38,571 nt of DNA from the IMG/VR virus record IMGVR_UViG_2541047961_000008. One strand, written 5' to 3'. Positions 9,331 through 37,575 of this stretch are shown piece after piece; position 1 is the first letter of the stretch; each line of letters begins with the position of its first letter. The position numbers were made by a program, and so were the translations under genes. Under the pieces are notes generated by a model. It was not told the DNA's origin. It made no database searches and worked only from the letters and a program-made list of their open reading frames with translations. The DNA comes from a virus (Duplodnaviria > Heunggongvirae > Uroviricota > Caudoviricetes).

Positions 9331-11463
<2,133 letters not shown>

Positions 11464-19552: not shown

Positions 19553-20262
19553 CGCGCCCCGTGATTAATGAATCACAGCTCCGGCAGGTTCGTCGCGCCA
19601 TCAGAGAGGCAGAGCTTCCGCCGGCAAAGGCCAGAAAGCTGCTGGTTCGTATTGCGAAATACGGCCTGATGCCGGCTGCACGGCGCAATGTGAAAGCACA
19701 GCGAACACCAGAGGGGGCAGCCTGGGCACCACGAAAAAGACCGGATAAAGCCCGCGGCAAGTATAAAAACAAAATGCTGCTGGGACTGCCAAAACTGCTG
19801 GCCATCAGGGTTGACAGCGACGGGAAAAGTGTCCGCCTTTTCTTCAAAAAGGGGGACTACAACACCGGATCTCATGGCGGGGCGGTAGCATGGGTGCAAC
19901 AGCACGGTGCAACCATCAAAGGCCGCGCCACAAAACGCCGGGACAACGAAGCCATGCGCACCCGCCCCGCCACACGACGACAGGCGGAGCGGCTTCTTTC
20001 TCTGGGCTTTCGGGCCCCCGTTGGCGCAGTCAGCAAAAAAACCGGACGCAGGGGACGCAGAAAGCCCTCCCTGAAATGGATTATGGAAAACATGAGTATG
20101 GCGCAGGCCGGGCTGGTGATCAGCATCCTGAAAGGCGAGCAGAAAAAGCGTGTATGGGAAATCAAAATCCCCTCCCGCGCATTTCTGGGCGCCAGCGATG
20201 CTGAATTTACCCGCATTCTGGAAGCGCAGTTGCGCAGCCTGCATTACGGCGGCACGAGATAA
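19549..20262 (+). CDS. Putative virion morphogenesis / tail completion protein (gpS / Mu gpG family)
   Basis: 237 aa, translationally coupled; assigned mainly by position before the sheath gene. Confidence 0.5.
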   Translation: MTRPVINESQLRQVRRAIREAELPPAKARKLLVRIAKYGLMPAARRNVKAQRTPEGAAWAPRKRPDKARGKYKNKMLLGLPKLLAIRVDSDGKSVRLFFKKGDYNTGSHGGAVAWVQQHGATIKGRATKRRDNEAMRTRPATRRQAERLLSLGFRAPVGAVSKKTGRRGRRKPSLKWIMENMSMAQAGLVISILKGEQKKRVWEIKIPSRAFLGASDAEFTRILEAQLRSLHYGGTR

Positions 20263-20281
20263 CAAAATCAGGAGACAAATT

Positions 20282-21430
20282 ATGACCTGGCCATCTGTCA
20301 CGATTGAACAGTACAACACGTTCAGTAGCTCGCCGGACGGCGTGGAAAATACGCTGCTGTTTGTGGGCAATGCACAAAACAACAAAGGTAAGATTCTGCC
20401 GGTTAATGCCAACAGTGATCTGGATGAGCTACTGGGAACGAACGCCAGCCCACTGAAGAGTTTCCTTCAGTCCGCACTGACCAATGCCGGACAGAATGCC
20501 TTTTTCTATGTTGCCGTTCTGCCGGAAGCAGGCAGGGGCAAAGAAGCGACGCCAGCCTGCCAGGCATGGCAGAACGCCATACTGGCGGCTCAGGAAACTG
20601 TTTCAGTTGAAGGTGTGGTGATCACCGAGCCGGTCAGCGCAAAGGATGATATCAACACCATGCAGGCGCTACGTCAGACCATCATCAATAAATATCAGCG
20701 CCGCATCTGGTTCATCCTGACCATCGCCGCCAACGGCGGCAGTAAAACCTGGGCAGAATACGTTGCCGAACTGACCACACTACAGGAAGGTATTGCAGCC
20801 CCGCAGATCATGCTGGTTCCGGAGATTTTTGGATTTGAACCGGGCGTTCTTGCAGGTCGCCTGTGTAACAGCGCCGTCACCATTGCTGACAGTCCGGCAC
20901 GTGTGGCAACCGGGGCACTGTCCGCACTGAAAACCACAGAGCGCCCGAAGGACAGCGCGGGACAGACAATTGATCTCGCCACCCTGCAGGCGCTGGCAAC
21001 CGCCCGCTACAGCGTGCCCATGTGGTATGCCGACTATGACGGCCTTTACTGGGCCGACGGCGTGACACTTGAGGTGGAAGGCGGGGACTACAACGTCATC
21101 GAACATGTCCGCATTGCTGATAAGGTGGCGCGCCGCGTACGGCTGATGGCCATCCCCAAAATTGCCGATCGCTCACTGAACAGCACACCGGGCAGCATTG
21201 CCGCACATGAAACGCTGTTTGCCCGCCCGCTGCGTACCATGGCGAAATCCACGCAGATTAACGGTGTCACCTTTCCGGGCGAAGTGAAATCGCCACAAAA
21301 AGGCGATGTGGCCATCACCTGGCAGGACGAAAAGACGGTCAGCATCAGCATTGTTGTCCGCCCTTACGCCTGCCCCAAAACCATCAAAGTGGGCATTCAG
21401 CTGGACAAATCTCTGGAGGAGAACGCATGA
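20282..21430 (+). CDS. Putative tail sheath protein (non-P2 type)
   Basis: 382 aa from the ATG at 20282 (RBS caggag); lies between completion genes and the tube-chaperone-tape measure set; not obviously similar to P2 FI. Confidence 0.6.
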   Translation: MTWPSVTIEQYNTFSSSPDGVENTLLFVGNAQNNKGKILPVNANSDLDELLGTNASPLKSFLQSALTNAGQNAFFYVAVLPEAGRGKEATPACQAWQNAILAAQETVSVEGVVITEPVSAKDDINTMQALRQTIINKYQRRIWFILTIAANGGSKTWAEYVAELTTLQEGIAAPQIMLVPEIFGFEPGVLAGRLCNSAVTIADSPARVATGALSALKTTERPKDSAGQTIDLATLQALATARYSVPMWYADYDGLYWADGVTLEVEGGDYNVIEHVRIADKVARRVRLMAIPKIADRSLNSTPGSIAAHETLFARPLRTMAKSTQINGVTFPGEVKSPQKGDVAITWQDEKTVSISIVVRPYACPKTIKVGIQLDKSLEENA

Positions 21431-23178: not shown

Positions 23179-25275
23179 ATGTCACAACAGCGCCTTGAAT
23201 TACTTCTTGAACTGACAGACCGCCTGACAAGGCCGTTGCGCGCAGCCGGGCGACAGGTTCAGGGATTTGCTGCAACAAGTCGGGGAGCCTTTCGGGACAT
23301 TGCTACCGGAGGCGCTGCGCTCTGGGGAGTGGGTGCAGCCATCCAGGGTGCACTGATGCCAGCTATTGAAATGGACAGGGCGCTCGGTGAGGTGAAATCA
23401 CTGGGCGTCGCAGAGTCCGGATTGCGTAAACTCAGCCGTGCCGCCATTGATTTCACTATGGAATACGGCGGGGCTGCGCAGGATTTTGTGCGTGCTTCTT
23501 ACGACATCCAGTCAGCCATTGCCGGGTTAACTGACGATGAGCTGTCCCGCTTCACCACCGCATCAGCAACAGTGGCAGCAGCAACCAAATCCAGCAGCCA
23601 GACCATTACCGCCTACATGGGCACCATGTACGGCATCTTTAAAGACCAGGCTGATGCCATGGGAAAAAGCAAATGGGTGGAGCAGATCGCCGGACAAACC
23701 GCCACTGCCGTGCAAATGTTTAAAACAACCGGCGATAACATGTCAGCGGCGTTCACCACACTGGGGGCCAGCGCAAAAGCGGCCGGTATTGATGCGGCTG
23801 AACAGTTCGCCGTGCTGGGGCAACTGCAGGCCACCATGAGTGGCAGTGAAGCCGGGACAAAGTACAAGGCATTTCTTGCCGCAGTAGGTAGCGCCCAGAA
23901 AAAGCTGGGGCTTAATTTCGTGAATAAAGACGGCACGATGAAAAGTGTTGTCGAGATCATGAAACTTATCAGGGGTAAATTTGGTGATCTGTCAAAAGTG
24001 GCTGATTCCGATTTGCTGAAAAGCGCCTTTGGCTCCGATGAAGCTGTGGCCATGATTAAATTACTCAATGCGGACATTGGCGGACTTGAAAAGAATATCG
24101 CCACGCTGGGCAATATCAAAGGTATGGATAAGGCTGTCGAAATGGCGCAGGCCATGGCTGATCCATGGGAACAGGCCGCCGCAATTATTAACGGCATTCG
24201 CATTGAAATTGGCACACAACTGTTACCCGTTCTGTATCCATTCATTCAGAAAAGCAACGAAGGCGGTAAATCCTTTGTTGCCTGGTTGCGTCTGTATCCA
24301 AACATCACACGTGCAATCGGCTTATTAAGCGCGGCACTTATTGGTGTTGCGGCGGTTGGCGCAACGGTCAATATCGTAATGGGGGTGGCGAAATTTATCT
24401 GGGTGGGATTACGCATGGTCTGGATGGCCGCAATCGCACCACTGAAATTAATCATCTTTCTGTATCGTGCCCTGAAAGTGGTTATGCTGGCGTTCTGTGC
24501 TACTGCCCGCATGGTCAGGGCATTATATCTGGCGATGAGTATCGCCATGGGGGCGCACAATGTCAGGGCCAAAATTCAGATTGCACTGCTGAAACTGCAA
24601 CGCATCGGTATGTGGCTTTATTCTGCCGCACTGGGCGCTGCAGCTGTGGCCATGAAAATTTATACCGCTGTTACCGGTGGCGCAGCCGTTGCCACTCAGC
24701 TACTTTTCAGCCCGATAACGTTAATCATCCTGGCACTGGCTGCGCTGGGCGTGGGCATTTATTTTCTGATTACCCGCTGGGATGAGATCAAAGCGGCACT
24801 GATGGATACAGCCGCTTTTCAGTGGGTAACCAGTGTCATAAAAAATATAGCTGTATGGTTCGGCAATACCTGGAAAGGCATTAAAAGCGGCTGGGATGCC
24901 GTTATTAATTATTTTTCCGCCCGCTCACCGCTGGAAATATTTCAGGATTATGTCCGTCTGATTAATAAATTATTTTCAGGACTATGGCGCACAATTATCG
25001 GTATGTTCAGCTCAGCATTCAGATGGATTGCTGACAAGCTGAATATGCTCCCGGGTATAAATATTGATGTACCAGAAATTACAAATAACAGTGAGGGTTC
25101 TGTATTAACCGGTGGAAAAGTCATTAGCGCCGGGCCAGGTGGCATTGCGGCAAAAATGCAAAATAACAGCGACAGCCAGACCACAATTGATAACTCCCGT
25201 CGCGTGGTCAATGTCAATGTGCAGGATGCATCCCCGGCCCACCTTAATGAATGGATGGAGCTGCATGCATACTGA
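23179..25275 (+). CDS. Tail tape measure protein
   Basis: 698 aa, alpha-helical/Ala-rich with a C-terminal hydrophobic block; follows the chaperone pair. Confidence 0.8.
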   Translation: MSQQRLELLLELTDRLTRPLRAAGRQVQGFAATSRGAFRDIATGGAALWGVGAAIQGALMPAIEMDRALGEVKSLGVAESGLRKLSRAAIDFTMEYGGAAQDFVRASYDIQSAIAGLTDDELSRFTTASATVAAATKSSSQTITAYMGTMYGIFKDQADAMGKSKWVEQIAGQTATAVQMFKTTGDNMSAAFTTLGASAKAAGIDAAEQFAVLGQLQATMSGSEAGTKYKAFLAAVGSAQKKLGLNFVNKDGTMKSVVEIMKLIRGKFGDLSKVADSDLLKSAFGSDEAVAMIKLLNADIGGLEKNIATLGNIKGMDKAVEMAQAMADPWEQAAAIINGIRIEIGTQLLPVLYPFIQKSNEGGKSFVAWLRLYPNITRAIGLLSAALIGVAAVGATVNIVMGVAKFIWVGLRMVWMAAIAPLKLIIFLYRALKVVMLAFCATARMVRALYLAMSIAMGAHNVRAKIQIALLKLQRIGMWLYSAALGAAAVAMKIYTAVTGGAAVATQLLFSPITLIILALAALGVGIYFLITRWDEIKAALMDTAAFQWVTSVIKNIAVWFGNTWKGIKSGWDAVINYFSARSPLEIFQDYVRLINKLFSGLWRTIIGMFSSAFRWIADKLNMLPGINIDVPEITNNSEGSVLTGGKVISAGPGGIAAKMQNNSDSQTTIDNSRRVVNVNVQDASPAHLNEWMELHAY

Positions 25276-25615
25276 TAAACCGCTTTACATTGATTTGCTT
25301 ATCACCGGTCGCAATTTCACGCTGAACAGCGCCGCCGAACCGGTGCTGTGCAACAACAGGGAAAGCATTGCCCAGGACTGCCAGCACGCCATCATTGAAA
25401 GCGGACTGGCAACGCGCCTGCTGGCTGAAAAAAGCCCGACGCTTCGCGCCGACATTATGATGCAGATGACACTGCTGATTGAAGATGATGAGCGCATCAC
25501 ACCCGGCACGGTCAGTGTGACAGAGGAAACCCCGCTTTCCGGCCGCCTGCTGATTAGCGCCCACACCGAAGATTTTTTTGATCCCCTGACTTTTACGGTA
25601 TCTCTTGATGATTAA
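25265..25615 (+). CDS. Baseplate protein, gpW/gp25-like
   Basis: 116 aa from the ATG at 25265 (in frame with ORF 25112-25615); size and position before the J-like gene match P2 W. Confidence 0.5.
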   Translation: MHTDKPLYIDLLITGRNFTLNSAAEPVLCNNRESIAQDCQHAIIESGLATRLLAEKSPTLRADIMMQMTLLIEDDERITPGTVSVTEETPLSGRLLISAHTEDFFDPLTFTVSLDD

Positions 25616-26792
25616 CGGCAAACCAACCGCAGATTACGAGCGCATTCTGGCTGATAACGGCATGCCGGTAACCGAAGAACAGGCGCGCACTGAATTTGAG
25701 GCCATCGTTAAAGACGAAGGGCTTATCACTAACACATCCCGCATGTCGCCGTTCTGGCGGTTGATTACAGCCATTACCACAAAGCCCGTGATGTGGCTGA
25801 AAGATGCACTGGTTAATGTGGTAATGAAAAACCTGTTTCTGGTAAGTGCCAGCGGTGTATTTGTGGATGTTTTCGCATGGGCGGTAAACCTGCAGCGCAA
25901 GGCTGCCACGCACGCAGCTGGCGTGATTCGTTTCACAAAAGACGACATTGATCACGCGGTCACCGTACCGGCTGGTACGCAGATTCAGACAGAACGCATT
26001 AACGGCGTGATTTATACGCTGACCGTTGTCAGGGATACCATTATTCCGGCAGGAACACTCAGCATGAACATCGATGTTTCTGCTGAACAGGCCGGAGCCG
26101 GGTTTAACCTCGCGCCGGGGTATTACCGCATTCTTCCGGTGGCGATTAATGGTATCGCCGGCGTTGAGAACGACGAAAACTGGCTGACCACGCCGGGGGC
26201 CAACGAAGAAAGCGACGACGAACTGCGTGATCGCGTTCGCAATCAGTTTAATCTTGCCGGTGCTTATCACACCGACGCTGTTTACCGGGGATTAATTGCC
26301 GGTGTTGCCGGCATCAGTGCCGACCGCATCTATTTTTTGCATGACGCACCACGCGGCCCCGGCACAGCAAACGCTTACATTCTGCTGGATACCGGCATCG
26401 CATCCGGACCGTTCGTTGATGCAGTAAACGCATTTATTAACGATGAAGGTCATCACGGACACGGCGATGATTTGCGCTGTTTTTCCATGCCTGAAACGCG
26501 CCATGCCCTGACCGTGACACTCTGGCTGTATGCAACACTGAACCTCAACGCTGAAGAGATACGGGCTTTATTACGCAACGTAGAGAATCTGGTCCGCTGT
26601 GCGTTTCGCGAAAACAGCGATTATGACGTTCAGAAAACATGGCCGTACAGCCGTTTCAGCATGTCCCGACTGGGCGAAGAGATCCACCAGGTATTTCCGC
26701 AGGTGGAATCGGTCACGTTTTCCCTTCCGGATATTCTCAGCGACCTGGCTGTGCCTCGCCTGGAATCCCTTATCGTGGAGGTGGGGTCATGA
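25608..26792 (+). CDS. Baseplate wedge protein, gpJ-like
   Basis: 394 aa from the ATG at 25608 (track starts at a TTG at 25605); in the W-J-I order. Confidence 0.7.
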   Translation: MINGKPTADYERILADNGMPVTEEQARTEFEAIVKDEGLITNTSRMSPFWRLITAITTKPVMWLKDALVNVVMKNLFLVSASGVFVDVFAWAVNLQRKAATHAAGVIRFTKDDIDHAVTVPAGTQIQTERINGVIYTLTVVRDTIIPAGTLSMNIDVSAEQAGAGFNLAPGYYRILPVAINGIAGVENDENWLTTPGANEESDDELRDRVRNQFNLAGAYHTDAVYRGLIAGVAGISADRIYFLHDAPRGPGTANAYILLDTGIASGPFVDAVNAFINDEGHHGHGDDLRCFSMPETRHALTVTLWLYATLNLNAEEIRALLRNVENLVRCAFRENSDYDVQKTWPYSRFSMSRLGEEIHQVFPQVESVTFSLPDILSDLAVPRLESLIVEVGS

Positions 26793-27424
26793 ATATTCCG
26801 GAGATGCCCGAATTCCCTCTCCCAACCTGGATGAACAAGGGAGAGCCATTAACACTGGCACATTCTTCACATCGTTACTGGGAGAAGGTCTACAGCTGGC
26901 TGACATGGCCACTACAGCAAATTGATGTTGATACCTGCGCAGAGCCTCTGCTTAACCTGCTGGCCTATCAGCGCAACATCACCCGCTTCAGTGGGGAGCC
27001 AGTTTCATTATTTCGCTTAAGGGTAAAACACGCGTTTATCAACGCTCAGGACTCGGGCGAACGTGCCGGCTTCGAACGCATCTTTAAGCGCCTTGGCGTG
27101 GGAGAGGTAAAAACCCTGGAACGACAGCTGCAGCATGACTGGGACGTTATTTTACTGCGCATCAATGACACCCAGTTAAGCGAAAACAATGCCCTGATGA
27201 TGCAGCTCGTGCGCCAGTATGGCCGTACCTGCAGGCGCTATTTCTTTCAGGTGATTAATACAACCACCGCTTACCTGACAGCCGGCACATTCAGCGGTGA
27301 TTACCGGTATTACGTGGCAAAAGCGACGATACGACCAGGCACAATCAGATTAAACGCATCATTACAGGCAGGGCATTACGGATTATCCGTGGAGCATTAC
27401 ACATTACAGGCAGGTAACGTATGA
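26789..27424 (+). CDS. Baseplate/tail protein, gpI-like
   Basis: 211 aa from the ATG at 26789, coupled to J; immediately upstream of the tail fibre. Confidence 0.6.
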   Translation: MNIPEMPEFPLPTWMNKGEPLTLAHSSHRYWEKVYSWLTWPLQQIDVDTCAEPLLNLLAYQRNITRFSGEPVSLFRLRVKHAFINAQDSGERAGFERIFKRLGVGEVKTLERQLQHDWDVILLRINDTQLSENNALMMQLVRQYGRTCRRYFFQVINTTTAYLTAGTFSGDYRYYVAKATIRPGTIRLNASLQAGHYGLSVEHYTLQAGNV

Positions 27425-29286
27425 GCACAATTATTACCGAACAATATGAAAACTGGTGCGCAGATCAGATTATCAGCGATAAACCCGCACGCCCGGATAT
27501 GTTTGTTTTTGCGTATATTCCGGGACAGGATGAGTCTGCAGAAATTCCCCGTGATGAGGCTTTGCCCGATGAATCCATGATTCAGTATCGCGCGCCGGTC
27601 ACTCAGTATGGACTGCTGTCCCCGAATGCTGCCGCATTTTCCATTATTCTGGACACCACTATCGGTGACTTCGAATATAACTGGATTGGCCTCATGAACG
27701 AAGAAAGCGGCGTGCTCTGCATGATTGCACACACACCGCGCCAGCAAAAAATTAAAACAGCAAACGGCGTGCAGGGAAATAACCTTATTCGCACCTTTGC
27801 CATGGAGTTTGACGGTGCGGCAGCGGCAATGCATATCGATGTCAGTGCTGATGTCTGGCAGATTGATTTTACTGCCCGACTCGCGGGAATGGATGAATCA
27901 CGTCGCCTGTTGGCATTTGATCACTACGGTGAAGCTGCCTTTCTGGGGGACGGTTTTCAGGTCAGCTATCAGGACGGTACCGCCACTGTTGCCGCCGGCG
28001 TGGGTTATGTGGGAGGCCTGCGCGTCAGTCTGCGCGAACCTTACAGCCTGCCGGCTGCGGTCGGGGATACCCTCTGGATTGATGCAAGCTGGCAGGGATT
28101 TGTTACCGGCGAATGGAATACCGTTTTTACGTTCTGCGCCCGCAAGGAACATGCGTCCTATACAGACGGTAACGGCTTCCGACACTTTGTCGCGCCACTT
28201 GCAAAAATGACAGCAGGCGGCCCACAGGACCTGCGCCCGGAGACACCCGACGAGGAGCAAAGCAATGCACTGGCAGAGCACGAAAAATCCCGCAGACACC
28301 CGGACGCCACGCTGAACGAGAAAGGCTTTGCGCAGTACAGCAACGACACCGACAGCGACGCAGAAGACCGCGCCGCCACTTCAAAGGCGGTAAAAGCCGC
28401 AATGGATAAGGCAAAAAGCGCTGTTGAGCGAGACGGCGATACCATGACCGGGGAACTGAAAATCCGTGGTGTTAATGCGCTGCGAATTTTCAACGAAGCC
28501 TTTGGTCTGATTTTTCGTCGTTCGGAAGAGTGTCTGCACCTTATCCCTACCAGTGAAGGTCAGGGTGAAAATGGCGATATTGGTCCCCTGCGTCCGTTCA
28601 CCATAAATTTGCGGACGGGTGAAATATCCATGTCGCACAAAGTGTCTGTTGGCGGCGGTTCTCAGGTCAATGGTGCGCTGGGTATCGGTGTTCAGAATGC
28701 GCTGGGCGGTAACTCAATTGCTTTCGGGGATAACGATACAGGTATAAAACAAAACGGCGACGGCATTCTGGATGTTTATGCGAATGGACAGCATGTATTT
28801 CGTTTCCAGAATGGTGTGGCGATAGCGTTAAAAAATATTCAGGCCGGAAATGCTAAAAAATTCACGTTATCCAGCGCCAACAACTCAACGAAAAACGCAA
28901 CGTTTAATTTATGGGGCAATTCGTCCCGTCCTGTAGTTGCAGAGCTTGGTGATGATTCCGGCTGGCATTTTTACAGCCAGAGAAATACGGATAACAGTAT
29001 AACGTTCGCTGTAAACGGACAGATGGTCCCGTCAAATTATGGAAATTTCGATGCCCGTTACCAGACCAAATCAGGGGGCGTGCAGAATTTTCAGTACACC
29101 AGTGAGGTGTTTTACAACCCTGGTGGGAATGAGCGCAGCTGGACGTTTCGGGCACCTTCTGGTTGTGTTTTGTCAGGCATTAATGTTCAGGACACTGGCA
29201 GTAACTCTGCAGATAATATCGGTGGCGTGTATTACAAACAGGCTCAGATTTATATCAATGGTGCATGGCGATCCGTATCAGGTTAA
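27421..29286 (+). CDS. H: Tail fibre protein (P2 gpH-like)
   Basis: 621 aa; motif AEHEKSRRHPDATLNEKGF...AATSKAVKAAMD matches the P2 H collar region as I recall it; variable C-terminal tip. Confidence 0.85.
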   Translation: MSTIITEQYENWCADQIISDKPARPDMFVFAYIPGQDESAEIPRDEALPDESMIQYRAPVTQYGLLSPNAAAFSIILDTTIGDFEYNWIGLMNEESGVLCMIAHTPRQQKIKTANGVQGNNLIRTFAMEFDGAAAAMHIDVSADVWQIDFTARLAGMDESRRLLAFDHYGEAAFLGDGFQVSYQDGTATVAAGVGYVGGLRVSLREPYSLPAAVGDTLWIDASWQGFVTGEWNTVFTFCARKEHASYTDGNGFRHFVAPLAKMTAGGPQDLRPETPDEEQSNALAEHEKSRRHPDATLNEKGFAQYSNDTDSDAEDRAATSKAVKAAMDKAKSAVERDGDTMTGELKIRGVNALRIFNEAFGLIFRRSEECLHLIPTSEGQGENGDIGPLRPFTINLRTGEISMSHKVSVGGGSQVNGALGIGVQNALGGNSIAFGDNDTGIKQNGDGILDVYANGQHVFRFQNGVAIALKNIQAGNAKKFTLSSANNSTKNATFNLWGNSSRPVVAELGDDSGWHFYSQRNTDNSITFAVNGQMVPSNYGNFDARYQTKSGGVQNFQYTSEVFYNPGGNERSWTFRAPSGCVLSGINVQDTGSNSADNIGGVYYKQAQIYINGAWRSVSG

Positions 29287-29299
29287 TTAAGGAGAAATA

Positions 29300-29842
29300 A
29301 TGGAACTCGTAAACGTTACGCGTTACTACCCTGAAGATATGCCTTATGGTGAAGGCATTCAGTATTTCCGTAGTGAAGACGGGCAGGATTTTTATGAATC
29401 ACTGGATAAGTTCACGAAGAAATACAAGCTGTGCACACATCCTGAAACTGGCGTTATTTATTCCATGGCGGAAGATGTATCCCGCCTTTATCCCGTTGGT
29501 TTTACCATTGTGGAAGTGGATGAACTACCGGAAGGATTTTGTATTGAAGCCCGCTGGTATTATAAAGACGGTGAAGTGCTGCCGGTCCCTGTTGACTACC
29601 GGCAGCAGGCAGAGTCGGAGCGTGCACGTCTTACTGCGATTGCCGAACGGGAAATATCCGATAAGAAGACGGATTTACTTCTGGGAATCATCAGTGATGA
29701 AGAAAAAGAAAAGTTGACAGCCTGGCGCATTTACGCGAAATCGCTGCAGGCGATGGATTTCAGCCAGATTACCGATAAATCATCGTATGCCACAATTGTA
29801 TGGCCGGAATTACCGCAGGATATTAACGAGAATAAAAAATAA
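29300..29842 (+). CDS. Tail fibre assembly protein (gpG/Tfa-like)
   Basis: 180 aa directly downstream of the fibre gene; C-terminal segment LTAWRIYAKSLQAMDFS typical of the Tfa family. Confidence 0.75.
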   Translation: MELVNVTRYYPEDMPYGEGIQYFRSEDGQDFYESLDKFTKKYKLCTHPETGVIYSMAEDVSRLYPVGFTIVEVDELPEGFCIEARWYYKDGEVLPVPVDYRQQAESERARLTAIAEREISDKKTDLLLGIISDEEKEKLTAWRIYAKSLQAMDFSQITDKSSYATIVWPELPQDINENKK

Positions 29843-32370
29843 TGAGCGCGCTGTTGACGAAAGCATTTGAGAAATGGGTTGCTGAATGCGCCGCCAGTAA
29901 TTTACCGGCGCGACCTGACTCCATTGTTTTTGCACTGATGGAAAGGGAACCATCCAGAGATGATGAAGTTGTCCCTCCTGAAAAAATCACACACACGGTA
30001 AATAATCTGCACTATGGAAAACTGGATCCAAACAGCATTGTCTGTAGTGCCGTTGTTGCTGATAACGAGACATTCACTTACGACTGGATTTGCCTGGTCC
30101 ATCAACCCAGCAACACACTCTGCGGCGTAATTAAAACCCCGGTTCGCCACAAACTGACCGGCGAAACACTTATCCGCAATTTTGCTGTTATTTACAGCGG
30201 ACTGGCTCAGGCTGCACACATTACTGTTCCTCCTGAAAGCTGGCAAACAGACATCTCGCAGGAGCTGAAAACAATTCAGGGCTTTATCAGCGATCACATA
30301 GCAGTATCAACCCGTTATGCGGTCACCGAAGCTAATAAGCAGTTTTTGTCCATGCAGATAACCCACGGGCGTTATTCAGGGCTCTGGCGTTATCTTAATT
30401 CAACCGGGGGTATTAACTGGTATTTTTTGTTTCTTGCGATGTATGAAAGCGAAGGTAAAGCCTTTTCTCTCAGGGACAGACTCGTTATTTGTGAAAAAGC
30501 CTTTCGTCTCGGTATAACGGCGCCATTCATGACGAATTTCCGCTATGAAGCCGGACAGCGCGTGATGATTAACAACACGCTATTTTTTGTAAATATCGCC
30601 GGCATTACTGGAGAAACCACACCTGATATCAGTAGCATCTCACAAGGTGAGTTTATTTATACAGGTTCTGCTGTTCTTGAATGTCTCGGGAAGACCAGTA
30701 AAGAGATCCCGTCATCATGGTCATGGTTCTTTACCGATGTGGCCGCTGATTTATATTCACCGGTTGCCCCTGATTCTACAGACAGTTACCCATCCCTCTG
30801 GTTTGCCTGTATTGCTGAAATTGCAGACGCTTCGTGGTTACAGGCCCCTGCAGGGATCGGCAATCATTCCAGATGGGAAATCATCAGACTGGTAGCGGAA
30901 AATAATATTTTGCGTCAGCTAAATACTGACGCAAATCTGGTAAACGTCTTTCAGGAAAACGTTGCTCCCGGTAATACTCATTACGCGCAATGTTTTTGTC
31001 AGGATAATGCCGAAGTCTATGCCGGTTTACGGGCTCTGGTCTTTCTGGCCAGACTGGTTAATGACTCTGATGCCGCCTCGCAATATTCCAACGCAATGAA
31101 AACAATTAAAACAGGGTTGCTGGCATTATTTGTTCCGGGCCAGAACAGATTCAAGACGTATTACAATGAAGCTGATTACCCCGATACCCCGGGCGATGCT
31201 CGTTTTGTGCAAAAAGACCGATTCTCTGTGGCTCCGTGGCGCTTTGGTGTGCTGAATACGCCTGCTGAACAGGCACAATATGGACTATCCGTTCTGGATG
31301 CCATCCAGAAAGATTATCCCGATTTATTTACATCGGATTACGCAGGCATTGATACTTTCGCCATGAGCGACTTTTTTGCATTCGTGGCAAAAGTTACAGC
31401 CTCACAGACCGCCGCAACAACAGCCCTTCGTCGTCTGCAGATCCGAAAAACTGCCGCCGTAACAATTTCAGATATTGCATCAGCAATGTCAGTTTCAGCA
31501 TGGGGATCAGTCCCCTGCATGAGTACACGCGACTTTATACGAATTAATGGTCGCTCCGTTGTTGGAGGTGAAGATATTGTCTTTCCGGAAAGAGAAATCC
31601 GGCACATTACCCCCGTCAATAACGCCCAGGTGGTTGTGGATAACCTCAACAATGACACCGTATTGTTTATTGATAATGACTCTGCACTTTCATATCTCCA
31701 GTTCAAAATAGCGCCGGGGCTGGTTGATGGTTGCCGCCTGTCAATCACACCGAAAAGGGACGTGACGAGAACATCATTTCTTACGCAGGATGCGCAGGTT
31801 TCAGATGCTCCGGAAGCGTTATTTGCAGGGAAAAACGTTACATTTACGTACAATGCAACAACGCAAACATGGCACAGAAACTTTGTACCTGCAGTTTCTT
31901 CTGCTGCTACAAATTTATTGAAAAAACAATCAGAATCTCTGTTTGTTGATGGCGCTCACCCGATCATCCCCAAAATGCTTGTAAGCACCCTGAACTCCAG
32001 TCTGGATTCATTTAAAAGCCTGCCCGATGGTTCGCGTGTTTATACCCTGAAGCTGGATGTATCAAACCCCGTCGGGCAATCCTCAGTTGGCGGCATCGGA
32101 ATCGCTGTTTCAGCGCAGATTGAGCCGCGTTATCTCTATCAGAACCAGAACCGACAGTACATTCCAGCGCAGTATTTTGTCAGCTCTGTCTCTGCAAATG
32201 CGCGAACAATCACTATCGGAATACAGGTGGTGATGCCTGATAAACCTTACTATGCACTGGATATGTCAACACTGGAAGAAATTGCCGGCGCAGATAATGG
32301 GTTGCTCCCCTGTGTTGTGGTTATAAAAACACTTGCAGGGACAACATTGCGTCAGAACGGAATGGGATAA
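29842..32370 (+). CDS. Second tail fibre/tailspike-like protein (842 aa)
   Basis: First ~150 aa are clearly homologous to the N-terminus of the fibre at 27421 (MSxxxTxxxExWxAxxxxSxxPARPD.xVFA...); the large C-terminal part is unrelated to it. Confidence 0.6.
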   Translation: MSALLTKAFEKWVAECAASNLPARPDSIVFALMEREPSRDDEVVPPEKITHTVNNLHYGKLDPNSIVCSAVVADNETFTYDWICLVHQPSNTLCGVIKTPVRHKLTGETLIRNFAVIYSGLAQAAHITVPPESWQTDISQELKTIQGFISDHIAVSTRYAVTEANKQFLSMQITHGRYSGLWRYLNSTGGINWYFLFLAMYESEGKAFSLRDRLVICEKAFRLGITAPFMTNFRYEAGQRVMINNTLFFVNIAGITGETTPDISSISQGEFIYTGSAVLECLGKTSKEIPSSWSWFFTDVAADLYSPVAPDSTDSYPSLWFACIAEIADASWLQAPAGIGNHSRWEIIRLVAENNILRQLNTDANLVNVFQENVAPGNTHYAQCFCQDNAEVYAGLRALVFLARLVNDSDAASQYSNAMKTIKTGLLALFVPGQNRFKTYYNEADYPDTPGDARFVQKDRFSVAPWRFGVLNTPAEQAQYGLSVLDAIQKDYPDLFTSDYAGIDTFAMSDFFAFVAKVTASQTAATTALRRLQIRKTAAVTISDIASAMSVSAWGSVPCMSTRDFIRINGRSVVGGEDIVFPEREIRHITPVNNAQVVVDNLNNDTVLFIDNDSALSYLQFKIAPGLVDGCRLSITPKRDVTRTSFLTQDAQVSDAPEALFAGKNVTFTYNATTQTWHRNFVPAVSSAATNLLKKQSESLFVDGAHPIIPKMLVSTLNSSLDSFKSLPDGSRVYTLKLDVSNPVGQSSVGGIGIAVSAQIEPRYLYQNQNRQYIPAQYFVSSVSANARTITIGIQVVMPDKPYYALDMSTLEEIAGADNGLLPCVVVIKTLAGTTLRQNGMG

Positions 32371-32394
32371 CATTTGAACGTACAGGAAAATGAG

Positions 32395-33117
32395 ATGAAA
32401 TATTCTGTATGGGAGCACGCCATTCTGCGCCCGGCCCCCATGGCCATCACCTGTTCAATGGTTTGCCTCCATCCATGGTCAGAAAATACGGGAAACATTA
32501 CACCATCAGGGCGTTACCTCAGCCCGGATAATGCTGTATCCGCGCTTTTACCTTATCTGACAGAAAGCACTGAAAAAGACGTTGTGGCGCTGTTATTTTG
32601 CGCCCCGTCTGCAGGCGAGTTTTTATCACTGGCCAGACAGTTTTCAGGTGCACTTCCATTGCCGGAAGTGGGAAGAATGTCCCGCATGATCTCCAGCCAG
32701 CTTTCGCTGGCCGTGAGTAAAATGCAGCTCCCTGCAAAACCGGCAACCACACTTCCTGCAGAAGTCACGCTGTCCACACAAACCACCCGCAGCATGACGC
32801 GGGCAGCGACTATTGCGCAGGCTGCGATCCCGACCGCTGTATCTCCGGAAACATTATCCTCGTCTCTGAATCAGTTCAGAATCGCGAGAGATAAGGCACT
32901 ACAGGAAATCACCGACCAGCAGGCCGCAATTCAGAAAAACACCTGTCCGGTGTGGCGTTTTTTTTATACGGGCACACTAAATCAGGTTGCAGCACTGATA
33001 AAAAAAAATATTCCACATCCGGAATGGGTTTTTACAGCTGTGATGCTGTTTGTCGGTAATGATCTTTCATCACTAAGAGAATCACTACATGACCCAGATG
33101 ATCGTTCTTGCACTTGA
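32395..33117 (+). CDS. Hypothetical protein (possible accessory protein for the second fibre)
   Basis: ATG at 32395 with RBS aggaaa; the track ORF begins at a TTG at 32374. Confidence 0.4.
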   Translation: MKYSVWEHAILRPAPMAITCSMVCLHPWSENTGNITPSGRYLSPDNAVSALLPYLTESTEKDVVALLFCAPSAGEFLSLARQFSGALPLPEVGRMSRMISSQLSLAVSKMQLPAKPATTLPAEVTLSTQTTRSMTRAATIAQAAIPTAVSPETLSSSLNQFRIARDKALQEITDQQAAIQKNTCPVWRFFYTGTLNQVAALIKKNIPHPEWVFTAVMLFVGNDLSSLRESLHDPDDRSCT

Positions 33118-33664
33118 CGGGGAAGCCATTCTGTTACGCAACATCATCGTCAGCGCCACCATGCAACTACCGGATAAAGATATGTCCGGACAGTCAACCA
33201 GCACCACCAGTGCCCAGCAGGGAAGCAAGGCTAAAGAGCTGCGTGTATCAGGCGTCATTGATTTTAATGATGAAGCTGTTCTGACCCGTATATTTCAGCT
33301 TGCAGAAGCCACAGAAAGCAACGGGGCTAAAAAAACATACCGCATCGCCAACGCTACTGCTAAGGCGATTAATATGCGACAGGGTGTTTTTTCGGGCGGT
33401 ATTGATGCAACGGAACAACAGGGCAAGATGCACTGGCAGGTCACCTTTACTCTCAGGGAAAAATTAAGCGTGCCGGAAAAAGCATCGGCACGCAGTGGCT
33501 CACAGAAAACAATCGCAAAGCAGCAGACACAGAACGGCAGTGAGCAGGCACCGGATAAAGGAATGAATACCCAGGAGACTTTCTGGAAAAATATCAATGA
33601 TGGTATTGGCTCCGGGCTGGACTGGATTGGCATCGGGAGCGTGAAAGAGGAAGGGAAAACATGA
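33089..33664 (+). CDS. Hypothetical tail-associated protein (191 aa)
   Basis: ORF overlapping the upstream gene by 29 nt; sits between the fibre module and the hub-like gene. Confidence 0.4.
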   Translation: MTQMIVLALDGEAILLRNIIVSATMQLPDKDMSGQSTSTTSAQQGSKAKELRVSGVIDFNDEAVLTRIFQLAEATESNGAKKTYRIANATAKAINMRQGVFSGGIDATEQQGKMHWQVTFTLREKLSVPEKASARSGSQKTIAKQQTQNGSEQAPDKGMNTQETFWKNINDGIGSGLDWIGIGSVKEEGKT

Positions 33665-35358
33665 AATTAATCCAACGTTGCATGATTAATGGCGAGCTGG
33701 CGGAAATTGCCGATATCAGCCTTGTCCTTACCCTGAATGCTGCCGGTCGCGGCTTCATTTCTGTTAATAATCTGTCACCGGAAAAAAGCCTTGCCGGCGC
33801 AATGATACAAATTGATCTCGGCCGTAATGGTGAGGCATGGCGCTATTTCTCCGGCTACATTGAGCGCGATCAACCCGCCGAAAATGGCTCACGCCGCCTT
33901 TTTATCCGTGAAGCAGCTGCCGTGCTGGATTTTGATTTCCCCTGCTCCATGCAACATCCAACGTTACGGGATGTACTCGATAATCTGGGTAAACAAAGCG
34001 GCATCGTTTTCATCACGCCAGATGCGGATTACGTCAGCACACCGACACCTTACATCACCCACAGCGGCAGCGGAGCACAACTGCTCAGCCAGCTGGGGCG
34101 AGCATTCAGTATCAGCGATTACGTCTGGCATCCAATGCCGGACGGTTCCGTATTTGTGGGAAGCGCACCGGATTCACGGTTTGCCAGTATTACCATGCCG
34201 GATATTCCGCAACAGTACACACTCGGGCAAAGCGGCGGAAACAGCATCGACATCATGTTTATGGAAACTGTGCGGCCGGGCGTGAACCTTCCGGCCGGGC
34301 GCATTACCCGTGTAGCCCTCAACAACGAGAAAATGACCCTGACATGGGAACGCCTTACCGCCACGGGTAGCCCTGTTTCCAAATCACCATTACGCAGACA
34401 GATGGAAACACAGTTCCCGGAACTGGCCAGCGGCACTCTACATACCCGGCTGGCGCGCGTCATTGCCCCAACGGAATCCGTCACCCTGGGCGATATTGCC
34501 AACAGCTTCCGCCCACGCTACGCCGTCGATGTGCAACTGCTTGATGAGAACGGCAACGATAAAAGCGATACGCCTGTTTATCCGGCAGTACCACTCCCCG
34601 TCCCGATGGCTGGTAGCGAGGCGGGATGTTTTGCCTACCCGCCGGCAGGCACCATCGTGGAAATATCCAACATTGAAGGGCGACCGGATAAACCTGTCAT
34701 CAGGCAAATCTTACCCGCGGGCCATAACCTGCCTGATGTAAAGCCCGGCGAACAACTGCAGCAACAGCGCGCAGAAGTGTTTCAGCGCGTCACGACTGAC
34801 GGAAGCTGGCACAGAGAAACTGACCAGCAAATCAGGGAGCATTCAGCCAGGCGAACCATTAACAGCGATCAGGAAGAACGCACAACAACAACCAGAACAA
34901 CAACAGTCCAGGCAAACGACATAACCAGTGTTCTTGGCACCAGTAAGCTGATGACAGGCCAGACAGAGCACCTTACTACCGGCAATTATGCGATCGCAGC
35001 CGGTGAGCATATCCAGATGGTAGCGCAGGATTTGCTGACTCAACTCAAAGGGGCGATATCCACCATTGAGCATGACCTCACCGAAAACGTGGGAGGCCGC
35101 AGAACATGCAGGGCGGACGGCGGTCTGGAGTTTACCGCCCCGACAGTATTTATTGGTCGCGGTGGCTCGCGGGAAAAGTCCGGGCTTAACCTGCTGACGT
35201 TGCTGATCGATATTCTGGATCTGATTCAATTGCTGGCCACACATACAGCAAACCACACCCATAGCAACACAGGCACGCCAATGAACAGCGGCGAACTTGC
35301 CGCAGATGCCCTGCAGGCGACGAGTCTGCGCGAAAAATACGGCGACATTATCGCCTGA
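33661..35358 (+). CDS. Putative baseplate hub/central spike protein (gpD/gpV-like, possibly a fused hub-spike)
   Basis: 565 aa, last structural gene; C-terminal His-rich motif ATHTANHTHSNTGTP resembles metal-binding spike tips; assignment by size, position and motif. Confidence 0.45.
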   Translation: MKLIQRCMINGELAEIADISLVLTLNAAGRGFISVNNLSPEKSLAGAMIQIDLGRNGEAWRYFSGYIERDQPAENGSRRLFIREAAAVLDFDFPCSMQHPTLRDVLDNLGKQSGIVFITPDADYVSTPTPYITHSGSGAQLLSQLGRAFSISDYVWHPMPDGSVFVGSAPDSRFASITMPDIPQQYTLGQSGGNSIDIMFMETVRPGVNLPAGRITRVALNNEKMTLTWERLTATGSPVSKSPLRRQMETQFPELASGTLHTRLARVIAPTESVTLGDIANSFRPRYAVDVQLLDENGNDKSDTPVYPAVPLPVPMAGSEAGCFAYPPAGTIVEISNIEGRPDKPVIRQILPAGHNLPDVKPGEQLQQQRAEVFQRVTTDGSWHRETDQQIREHSARRTINSDQEERTTTTRTTTVQANDITSVLGTSKLMTGQTEHLTTGNYAIAAGEHIQMVAQDLLTQLKGAISTIEHDLTENVGGRRTCRADGGLEFTAPTVFIGRGGSREKSGLNLLTLLIDILDLIQLLATHTANHTHSNTGTPMNSGELAADALQATSLREKYGDIIA

Positions 35359-35397
35359 ACACCAGACATAAAAGCCACATAAACGCCCCATCACACA

Positions 35398-35424
35398 ACG
35401 CACGGTCCCGGCCGTGCGTTTTCC
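35398..35424 (+). terminator. Rho-independent terminator of the late tail operon
   Basis: acgcacgg-tcccgg-ccgtgcgt followed by TTTT, 40 bp after the stop of the 565-aa gene. Confidence 0.7.
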
Positions 35425-36185
35425 TATCCACCACCTGATTAATGCGTTCTGCGTGCCATTCTGGCGCTGTATGCGCGCACCGCGTAAACGGTGTGACGTA
35501 AAGCGTGAGGTGACGTAAACCGCGCTACCCCCTCCAACCCGCGGGTTTTGTGTCGAAACAGTTTTTCAGTTTTCTGCCGTGCAAAAATGACCGCCAGCCC
35601 GCGCAGTAACTGAGGGAAAAGCGAAGATCTGAAATTTCACTCATGGAAATTTTTTGCAGTTTTCAGCGGGTTTTTTACGATCGCACAAATGGCAGGAGCA
35701 ATAAAACCGCATGATATTAAACGAGTTTTCATACTTTACGTGAGACGAGAAACGATCACGAAAGGATCGCATCAAAAAATCGTCAAACAACGAAGCCAGA
35801 CGCGGCGCGGCCTGCGTAAAATTAAGAGTCAAAATTAAACTGAAAAAAGGATCAATACAGCGCATCGATCGCACATGACGATCTACGCAGCAACAGGACA
35901 AAAAAACCGGCGCGAACGCCGGCGGAAGCATGTATCAAATGCGTGACTGAATAATGTCTGCGGTCGGGAATTTTATATCAAAAGGCTGACAGGCCTCAAC
36001 GGATTGAAACAAGGGAAAAAACCAGGCTAGAATTCGCGCGGGTGCCTTTCGGCTGATGGCTGGAGGGAATACCTGAAGGCCGGATGTGGAAAGGCCCCGG
36101 AAAACATTTTTGTTTAACCGAGGCCCTAACCATCTACCCTAGACAAGTGATAGGTTAGCGCCTCCCTAAAAAAGGAGCAAGCGCT

Positions 36186-36326
36186 ATGTCGCAAAAATCG
36201 CTTACGGCCATTACGTTCTGCGTAACGGCAATCCTCATCATCTGGATGCTGCACGGTTCGCTGTGTGAAATACGGATGAGCTTCTGGGGAGCGGAGTTTG
36301 CGGCGTTCTTACAGTGTAAGCAGTAA
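36186..36326 (+). CDS. hok: Hok/Gef-family type I toxin (46 aa)
   Basis: MSQKSLTAITFCVTAILIIWMLHGSLCEIRMSFWGAEFAAFLQCKQ: one TM helix plus the SLCEIR...AAF motif of Hok-family toxins; RBS aaggag. Confidence 0.6.
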   Translation: MSQKSLTAITFCVTAILIIWMLHGSLCEIRMSFWGAEFAAFLQCKQ

Positions 36327-36410
36327 GGAAACCGCGACGGGGGAGCAATCCCCCGTCAATCGGTTGTCAGGGCAAGACTGATAAGGCACCCTATACACAT
36401 CCCAAAGCAG

Positions 36411-36446
36411 AAACCCGCAGCGTAAAAACTGCGGGTTTTCTTTTTG
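36411..36446 (+). terminator. Rho-independent terminator downstream of the hok-like gene
   Basis: aacccgcag-cgtaaaaa-ctgcgggtt followed by ttctttttgg; a second hairpin (ccctcac-aag-tgaggg) follows. Confidence 0.65.
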
Positions 36447-36515
36447 GCGCCCTCACAAGTGAGGGTGCCAGTTAAAGATTACAATAATACTAATTCAGTC
36501 TGTCTATTTATTTTG

Positions 36516-37256
36516 TTAATCTTCGATTTTCTTTAAAGGAAAAATATCTGGAGTAAATACATCCTTAACAGGAATATTTAGCTGCTTACGAATAAACTGT
36601 TTCAATTTCTTTTCTTCCTTTAAATCCAAAATCCCATCATTACCAGCAAACTTTTTCTTATACTCATTCCACAAGGATATAGATTGAAGTTGCGATTTCG
36701 TTAATATTACGTCACTAGACAATATAGTCCATTTTTTATTATCACATACAACACCAGTTCCACAACCATCCGGAGAATAATCAACCATTGCCAACCGATA
36801 ACTACCTTCCGAATTTTCCGTAGGTAGAAGCAACACAGATACAAAGTCAGCTCTCTTCTCTTTCTGCCACTCAATAGCCGCGGCCATTGCTGTCGAAGCT
36901 CTTGATTCTAAATCTTGAGACTCAGGAGACACTATAAAAACCTTAAATCTCTTTCGCCCCGCATAACTTATGTCATCATAACGCACAAAAGAATACGGTT
37001 TCGCCTTGTCTACTCCAGATAAAGCAAGTTCATCGCTAATATGCTCCTTCGATGGAATATTATTTACCTGTGAATCGGATTCGTTTCCGGATAATTGCCA
37101 AATAACCCAAAACACAACGAAGAACATTACAACCAACAATAAACACCCTCTCCTTTCTTTTTTTTGCGTTGCCCAAAAAGAAGTTCCACACGTCGGACAC
37201 ACTGATTCCTTCGTAGAATTTTTAGACTGACATTTTGTACAAACCCAATGAAGCAT
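36516..37256 (-). CDS. Hypothetical zinc-ribbon membrane protein in an AT-rich island (246 aa)
   Basis: N-terminal CxxC...CxxC (CTKCQSKNSTKESVCPTCG), one TM helix (LLLVVMFFVVFWVIWQL), ~190-aa C-terminal domain; visibly AT-rich compared with flanking phage genes; RBS ggag. Confidence 0.55.
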   Translation of the reverse strand: MLHWVCTKCQSKNSTKESVCPTCGTSFWATQKKERRGCLLLVVMFFVVFWVIWQLSGNESDSQVNNIPSKEHISDELALSGVDKAKPYSFVRYDDISYAGRKRFKVFIVSPESQDLESRASTAMAAAIEWQKEKRADFVSVLLLPTENSEGSYRLAMVDYSPDGCGTGVVCDNKKWTILSSDVILTKSQLQSISLWNEYKKKFAGNDGILDLKEEKKLKQFIRKQLNIPVKDVFTPDIFPLKKIED

Positions 37257-37390
37257 GAATAATTCTCCATGATGTCAAAGATAAAACTAACAACCACAAA
37301 AAGGCACACAAATTTTATGGTTTGAAAAGAGGGCAAAGCAAGAATTATAAAGCCCGCATATTTTACGGGCTTTGACTATATCTCGAAAAT

Positions 37391-37412
37391 GTGGTCACTA
37401 CGTGGACATACG
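37391..37412. repeat. Imperfect copy of the left-end GTGGACAC-type repeat; candidate right att region
   Basis: gtggtcactacgtggacatacg versus gtggacactgcgtggacacttacg at 11-34. Confidence 0.35.
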
Positions 37413-37575
37413 TTGATACAAATCCTTTTATATCAATGGATTAATTCATCATCTTTTTCATCAACAAGGATTTTCACGTTTGTGTTACCTGTATGAGACG
37501 AGAGTTAATCAGACAAGTGTGCCATAATCTCGCGGCCAGGCATACTTGCGAAGATTTCAGGTATAAGGATACGTA

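Follow-up and report, generated by a model that had tools for sequence, protein, structure and literature searches.

A second tail fibre with a predicted glycosidase-like barrel spliced between anchor and tip in a P2/HP1-type Escherichia coli prophage

Receptor-binding proteins (RBPs) decide the host range of phages. Virions with several RBPs, the sharing of anchors and the exchange of cassettes are well known, and enzymatic RBPs are sought as anti-capsule or anti-biofilm reagents and for serotyping. The window analysed here, a stretch of 38,571 nucleotides (IMG/VR virus record IMGVR_UViG_2541047961_000008), is a P2/HP1-type (Peduoviridae-like) Escherichia coli prophage with the integrase, gpA replication protein, P2-type capsid protein, portal and terminase genes of the P2 family. 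Its baseplate operon encodes two tail fibres, and the question is what the second of them, a protein of 842 amino acids (aa), contributes to the virion. A preliminary description of the DNA had suggested a dual-receptor or depolymerase-bearing tail. Two RBPs are indeed encoded and the second has a predicted glycosidase-like barrel, while the depolymerase activity is something that we infer. We consider it somewhat better than an even chance that this second fibre is a virion-bound, enzyme-bearing RBP acting as a glycan depolymerase.

The open reading frames (ORFs) of both fibres are as first described: fibre 1, the primary P2 gpH-like tail fibre (621 aa), at 27421-29286, and fibre 2 at 29842-32370, both on the plus strand like all features below unless stated otherwise. 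The claim that they share an N-terminal anchor and have unrelated distal parts also held. BLASTP gave one significant alignment between them (aa 1-154 of fibre 1 with aa 1-142 of fibre 2, 36% identity, E 7e-24); all other segments had E values above 1, and the distal parts are therefore unrelated. The phage tail-collar fibre N-terminal domain PF12571 matched both proteins over about aa 3-150, with 98.9 bits in fibre 1 (aa 3-157, E 3.6e-28) and 38.2 bits in fibre 2 against a curated cut-off of 23. Fibre 1 also matched the PF03406 fibre repeat, the gp34 trimerisation domain and PHROG tail-fibre families. The anchor of the single fibre of Salmonella phage SI7 is 46% identical to that of fibre 1 and 32% identical to that of fibre 2, which argues for two conserved paralogous anchors, each kept in its own slot.

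The two genes are not adjacent, as had first been thought. A 180-aa Tfa chaperone gene for fibre 1 (29300-29842) lies between them, with matches to PF02413 Caudo_TAP (E 7.2e-23) and to the tail fibre assembly protein family phrog_136 (E 4e-55). Its stop codon TAA overlaps the ATG of fibre 2 as TAATG, which suggests co-translation of Tfa and fibre 2 within the baseplate operon; this overlap and the intact fibre 2 gene support expression of the latter. A Tfa/Caudo_TAP gene thus stands immediately downstream of fibre 1, whereas fibre 2 is followed by a 240-aa backbone gene instead, and no chaperone gene of its own was found behind the fibre 2 tip in the window or in the sibling prophage described below.

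Alignment of homologues resolved four modules in fibre 2. The anchor (aa 1-135, 29842-30246) is the diverged paralogue of the fibre 1 anchor. It is followed by a strongly conserved central domain (aa ~148-585, 30283-31596), predicted to fold as an (alpha/alpha)6-barrel resembling glycoside hydrolases (GH), by a beta-sandwich domain (aa 586-682, 31597-31887) that accompanies the barrel in most of the relatives aligned, and by a beta-sandwich tip (aa 683-842, 31888-32370). The PHROG family phrog_33169, annotated as of unknown function, matches the protein end to end.

How these modules came together can be read from a sibling prophage (locus L007, E. coli GCA_012762095.1) of identical layout, in which fibre 2 (P0266) has only 350 aa. 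Compared with fibre 2, P0266 shows 97% identity in the anchor (over aa 1-142) and 88% in the tip (aa 683-842 of fibre 2). In a blastn comparison whose query ended at 36500, the window and L007 were 98.8% identical over 23842-30246 and 96.4% identical over 31888-36445, with no match between. Here L007 has only 165 bp, coding for a short Pro/Thr-rich linker, where the window has 1641 bp (30247-31887, aa 136-682). The left breakpoint lies directly behind the anchor-coding sequence, which ends in codons for PPESWQ, and the right breakpoint at P683. Since the flanks are near-identical, the replacement of 165 bp by 1641 bp is a clean cassette insertion: the barrel and the beta domain arrived as a 1.6-kb unit spliced between the anchor and the tip of a pre-existing short second fibre. 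The tip also ends the shorter fibres P0266-P0268 and P0031, and a homology search with the beta domain and tip returned four proteins only, the 350-aa sibling fibre among them. The beta domain is tandemly repeated in P0008 (L004 8001-11192) and P0009, apparently as three copies of a 'RHITPxNNAQ...FTYNA...W' unit.

Fibre 1 has a history of exchange as well. From about 28390 to 29780, a region that covers its distal part and most of Tfa, the DNA is 85-89% identical to fibre and assembly genes of Rac-SA53 and phiP27; the tip of fibre 1 and its Tfa thus match other E. coli phages and are also an exchanged cassette. The related loci L005 and L006 diverge from the window exactly at ~28390-29780.

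What, then, is the central domain? The preliminary description had found no nameable features in the distal part of the 842-aa protein, and structure prediction supplied a probable one. AlphaFold2 modelled aa 148-842 from 25 aligned sequences with a mean predicted local distance difference test score (pLDDT) of 77.5, and most 10-residue blocks of the central domain scored 82-98. The model has about a dozen long helices and a beta-hairpin subdomain inserted after the third helix (model residues 78-136). The top Foldseek matches were GH94, GH116, GH78, GH121 and GH52 barrels, all with probability 1.0. A separate structure comparison listed a long series of other (alpha/alpha)6 enzymes (among them GH63 YgjK, GH37 trehalases, GH78, GH76, GH8 and GH94). 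A glycosidase fold was thus matched in the predicted structure of aa ~150-842, rather than an inert fibre fold. A beta-helix or an ordinary fibre fold for this region was considered and rejected, the main domain being helical and matching (alpha/alpha)6 barrels, and no beta-helix enzyme stood among its top fold matches. Fibre 2 also falls within the alpha/alpha-toroid depolymerase class as defined in PMC11326577 (Foldseek probability > 0.5). As a prediction, the (alpha/alpha)6 barrel is strong; membership in a particular family is not established.

Sequence searches hardly put a name to the domain. On fibre 2, PF22422 (MGH1-like glycoside hydrolase) reached 19.0 bits, below its 27-bit cut-off; NCBIfam gave no match, and neither did a phmmer search of PDB chains. 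The family profile found a single, non-significant match in the PDB, a beta-glucosidase (E 0.66). In the GenBank phage collection the distal part of fibre 2 was found in no sequenced phage, and the anchor alone matched, at 25-32% identity. A profile search of 1.84 billion representatives recovered 183 clusters at E <= 1e-3 and 32 at E <= 1e-30. No Pfam family covered the barrel domain in 40 distant members; a T7 tail-fibre N-terminal domain or phage fibre repeats were present in single members of this set, and RHS repeats in one. No characterised member of the family and no curated model for it were found.

Within the family, conservation is concentrated in two acidic motifs. About 140 family representatives, taken at the 50% clustering level, were compared. 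In the motif P310-D-S-T-D-S-Y316 (30769-30789), 99% of them keep D314, 97% D311 and 93% S312, and the motif is invariant in A2. In the motif Q387-D-N-A-E-V-Y393 (31000-31020), the values are 97% for D388, 95% for E391 and 87% for N389. The four most conserved polar residues are therefore the carboxylates D314, D311, D388 and E391. Both motifs adjoin helix N-termini in confidently modelled regions; the second opens model helix 239-258, at a pLDDT of about 96. Such a pattern would be expected if a glycosidase active site had been retained, with D311, D314, D388 and E391 as candidates for the catalytic residues.

The same fold could serve binding. It is conceivable that the barrel only binds glycan in a lectin-like way, with no cleavage, and that host range is widened or switched by adhesion alone. 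This would agree with the failure to reach the curated cut-offs of GH families and with the occurrence of the fold in non-hydrolases, and the beta domain and tip, which resemble lectin-like and RBP beta-sandwiches, would be plausible binding parts. However, the conservation of four carboxylates at 95-99% across such distant representatives is hard to explain by binding alone, and the top structural neighbours are overwhelmingly active glycosidases and phosphorylases. We regard adhesion without cleavage as unlikely.

The distribution of the barrel in other phages bears on the same point. The arrangement of barrel, beta domain and tip recurs on other anchors at 57-81% identity. The closest full-length relatives of the distal 700 aa of fibre 2, P0002-P0005, are 79-81% identical and carry a PF08400 (lambdoid Stf-type) anchor. 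At the DNA level, 30280-32365 is 77.6% identical to a gene for a 992-aa protein with this anchor in E. coli AH19B041, where a fibre and Tfa directly precede it at the end of a Mu-like prophage. The barrel protein of Mu-like E. coli prophages is the second fibre, on the PF08400 anchor, and is followed by DUF4376, com and mom genes. In a classical P2-like phage (V, W, J, I, then the barrel protein) it is the only fibre, and no Tfa is present. In a Salmonella prophage of the epsilon15/phiV10 type, the barrel module forms the sole tailspike, whose gene immediately precedes the lysis genes. This tailspike is 76-80% identical to SPN1S and phiV10 tailspikes over its N-terminal 230-270 aa and stops directly behind the beta domain. 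The module is therefore found in sole-RBP, fibre and tailspike positions, that is, it occupies RBP or tailspike slots on different tail types. On the sequence comparisons, it is a unit that is exchanged among anchors of phages with contractile and with short tails, usually along with its beta domain. Fibre 2 has the same combination of an RBP locus and a virion-attachment domain, with its PF12571 anchor in the baseplate operon. Since tailspikes of the epsilon15 group are enzymatic, the presence of the module at the usual tailspike position of an epsilon15-like prophage is a further argument against a purely lectin-like role.

A Mu-like prophage has a 68%-identical variant of the barrel (P0016, L010 8001-10598) as its second fibre, with com and mom alongside. 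DNA of this variant occurs in three O45:H16 strains, E. coli RM11911, RM13745 and RM13752 (PMC7285328). Any link between this serotype and the substrate would be very thin, as it depends on three strains that are possibly clonal.

An enzyme in this place might also act outside host recognition, either as a receptor-destroying activity for the release of progeny or as a soluble degrader of biofilm matrix, with little role in adsorption. Fibre 1 with its Tfa is already a complete conventional adhesin, and a sibling prophage without the cassette indicates that the cassette is dispensable for the lineage. On the other hand, the cassette lies within a protein with an intact baseplate anchor and a tip and hence should be virion-bound, and there are other phages whose only RBP contains the module. 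We consider such an action at another stage improbable, more so than adhesion without cleavage.

Least probable of all, in our estimate, is a scar left by recombination in a decaying prophage: the mosaic ORF of fibre 2 would have survived by chance, and its product would have no function, neither folding nor assembling. An IS21 element (istA/istB, 9595-11396) does lie inside the prophage, and the cassette is rare, with a detectable DNA homologue in only 7 of the 5,426 complete E. coli genomes. Against decay, the 2.5-kb ORF is uninterrupted, both junctions coincide with module boundaries (on the left directly behind the anchor, on the right directly ahead of the tip) and the domain is modelled confidently. 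Moreover, fibre 2 is 99% identical to the representative of a 103-sequence cluster, and this cluster and the recurrence of the arrangement on other anchors indicate selection.

We therefore return to fibre 2 as an enzyme-bearing RBP and ask whether a second fibre is peculiar to this prophage, as the preliminary description had implied. It is not. Part of the baseplate module was matched in 231 of the 5,426 genomes, and the best-matching relatives, in which 65-70% of the module aligned at about 89% identity, are annotated with two tail-collar fibre proteins. In both E. coli A36 and E. coli E300010 a 566-aa fibre is followed by Tfa. Next come, in A36, a second fibre of 645 aa and a DUF4376 chaperone, a gene that some other variants of the second slot have too, and in E300010 a second fibre of 285 aa and a hypothetical protein of 352 aa. 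The fibre 2 anchor recurs at 72-75% identity in more than 100 protein clusters, with lengths of 474-811 aa and differing distal parts. As far as these genomes indicate, a pair of PF12571 fibres is routine in E. coli prophages of this lineage, with a second slot whose content varies and which evidently behaves as a cassette site. The two anchors would then dock at distinct sites of the baseplate. In E300010 the second slot (L005 5069-7009) holds the 285-aa protein with PF12571 and, separately, the 352-aa hypothetical protein; this pair could be a split fibre or a two-part RBP.

The mechanism that we propose joins these observations. Two RBPs would dock at the baseplate through paralogous PF12571 anchors. 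Fibre 1, with Tfa, would be a conventional adhesin, while fibre 2 would bind a host surface polysaccharide (O-antigen, capsule or a similar glycan), which the barrel domain would cleave with the carboxylates of its PDSxDSY and QDNxE motifs. Cleavage would open the glycan layer to the virion and bring the cell surface within reach of fibre 1 and the baseplate. Fibre 2 would thus act in a tailspike-like role, as in other phages, and in cooperation with fibre 1.

Several points weigh against this proposal. Enzymatic activity and substrate rest on inference. Membership in a characterised GH family was not found at the sequence level, whether in Pfam, in NCBIfam or through a solved homologue, and identity to the structural neighbours is only 8-13%. 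D311, D314, D388 and E391 are candidates from their conservation and their place beside helix N-termini. The predicted structures are of monomers, and a trimeric anchor would have to hold three 440-residue barrels. Finally, the IS21 insertion may have inactivated the copy of the prophage in the window, in which case no virions are made from it.

Comparison with known systems shows which parts of this arrangement are familiar. P2 gpH/gpG resemble fibre 1 and Tfa, with a PF12571 anchor and a Caudo_TAP chaperone. In SI7 and Yersinia phage vB_YenM_324, Peduoviridae with the HP1-type baseplate, the gene order is that of the window: tape measure, DUF2590, J, I, fibre, Tfa, a gene for ~240 aa, HP1_ORF34 (~180 aa) and a baseplate protein of ~570 aa. 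These phages have one fibre, whereas the window and related E. coli prophages have a second PF12571 gene after Tfa. This second fibre departs from the P2/HP1 type in that it has no chaperone of its own and that its anchor is only 32-36% identical to the primary one.

Enzymatic tailspikes, such as the endorhamnosidases of P22 and epsilon15 and the capsule depolymerases of Klebsiella and Acinetobacter phages, follow the same plan of an N-terminal anchor, a carbohydrate-active domain and C-terminal beta domains. Fibre 2 differs from these canonical proteins in its predicted (alpha/alpha)6 barrel, where they have a trimeric right-handed beta-helix or a beta-propeller. To our knowledge, nearly all characterised enzymatic RBPs are beta-helices or propellers. 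In published surveys the alpha/alpha-toroid fold accounted for 11 of 984 proteins (1.1%) with a polysaccharide-degrading fold (DepoScope survey, PMC11326577) and for 29 of ~3,900 depolymerase domains of Klebsiella prophages, under 1% (PMC12491483). Barrels of the GH15 type and related ones (9ju0 dextran dextrinase, 1lf6 bacterial glucoamylase, 1ulv glucodextranase and 7qsj MmpH) share 8-13% identity with fibre 2, which differs from them in the beta-hairpin subdomain after the third helix and in that its domain is embedded in a phage fibre. The lambdoid Stf (PF08400) relatives, so close in the distal 700 aa, differ in anchor and phage type, and in two of them, P0002 and P0003 (992 aa), anchor and barrel are separated by a long Ala/Glu-rich segment that is missing from fibre 2.

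Phages with several RBPs (CBA120 TSP1-4, G7C gp63.1/gp66, the dual tailspikes of K1-5/SP6 and the branched RBPs of Klebsiella phages) are alike in having at least two RBPs of different specificity per virion and in their hotspots of cassette exchange. They branch through adaptor or XD domains on one RBP, whereas each fibre of the window carries its own baseplate anchor of the same type, which points to both docking directly. Enzymatic RBPs on shared anchors are familiar as a class; the enzyme family, its insertion between anchor and tip, and a natural pair of prophages with and without it are not. Our search of the literature found nothing specific on two-fibre Peduoviridae or on six-hairpin RBPs.

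The locus therefore brings to light an unannotated fold family in RBP slots of both contractile-tailed (P2/HP1-type and Mu-like) and short-tailed (epsilon15-like) phages. The near-identical pair of prophages marks the splice points (aa 135/136 and 682/683), a design rule for the engineering of fibres, along with residues to mutate. If the activity is true, a new family of glycosidases and a new determinant of specificity for E. coli and Salmonella phages would follow; if it is false, the case still documents a routine second-fibre slot in this lineage of prophages. A wider proposal, which we put forward tentatively and judge slightly less probable than its opposite, is that the barrel defines a previously unclassified GH family (PDSxDSY ... 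FQ ... QDNxE), a portable surface-glycan depolymerase of enterobacterial phages. It would move as a cassette of barrel and beta domain among Peduoviridae, Mu-like, lambdoid-anchor and epsilon15-like RBPs, and the HP1-type E. coli prophages would keep a dedicated second docking site, the diverged PF12571 paralogue, as a plug-in slot.

The genes around the fibres belong to the backbone of the baseplate. An uninterrupted run of tail genes starts with the tape measure (23179-25275) and continues with a DUF2590 gene (about 25265-25615), a baseplate J-like gene (25605-26792) and an I-like gene (about 26789-27424). The start given for the DUF2590 gene in the ORF list, 25112, is probably too far upstream, judging by the 116-aa orthologues in related prophages. 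Downstream of fibre 2, the two genes at 32395-33664 had been described as of unknown function and by implication linked to the second fibre, and both points required revision. The first (32395-33117, 240 aa) matches phrog_1677, and its product is 32% identical to SI7 gp22 (E 3e-32); it holds the same position in SI7, vB_YenM_324, L005, L006 and L007. The second (33089-33664, 191 aa) encodes a baseplate complex protein of the HP1 ORF34 type (PF25759, E 1.8e-53). Both are conserved in the single-fibre phages SI7 and vB_YenM_324 and are therefore backbone genes; a role as accessories or chaperones of fibre 2 was accordingly rejected, and the 842-aa gene is the extra element between Tfa and the baseplate backbone. 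The ORF list starts the 240-aa gene as a 247-aa ORF at TTG 32374, and AGGAAA precedes the ATG at 32395. The latter is likely to be the true start, in agreement with the 240-aa orthologues in the sibling prophage and SI7.

The next backbone gene (33661-35358) encodes a baseplate protein of 565 aa (phrog_2258, E 4.8e-233) that had no Pfam match. Its aa 312-363 gave a weak, sub-threshold match to models of VgrG of the type VI secretion system, which suggests that the protein may be the hub or spike of the HP1-type baseplate. At the position of the tail sheath (20150-21430), the gene has DUF2586 as its only Pfam match (E 4e-127) and matches no named sheath family, so that in the HP1-type lineage the sheath is still listed under a DUF entry. 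The IS21-family element lies between the replication and packaging regions and encodes an IstA transposase (rve and HTH domains) and an IstB ATPase (PF01695, E 8e-112). Just beyond the end of the query used in the comparison with the sibling prophage, a stretch of low GC content (36500-37500, 36% as against 51% for the window) contains a DUF4875 gene on the minus strand (36516-37256) and is probably cargo or flanking DNA.

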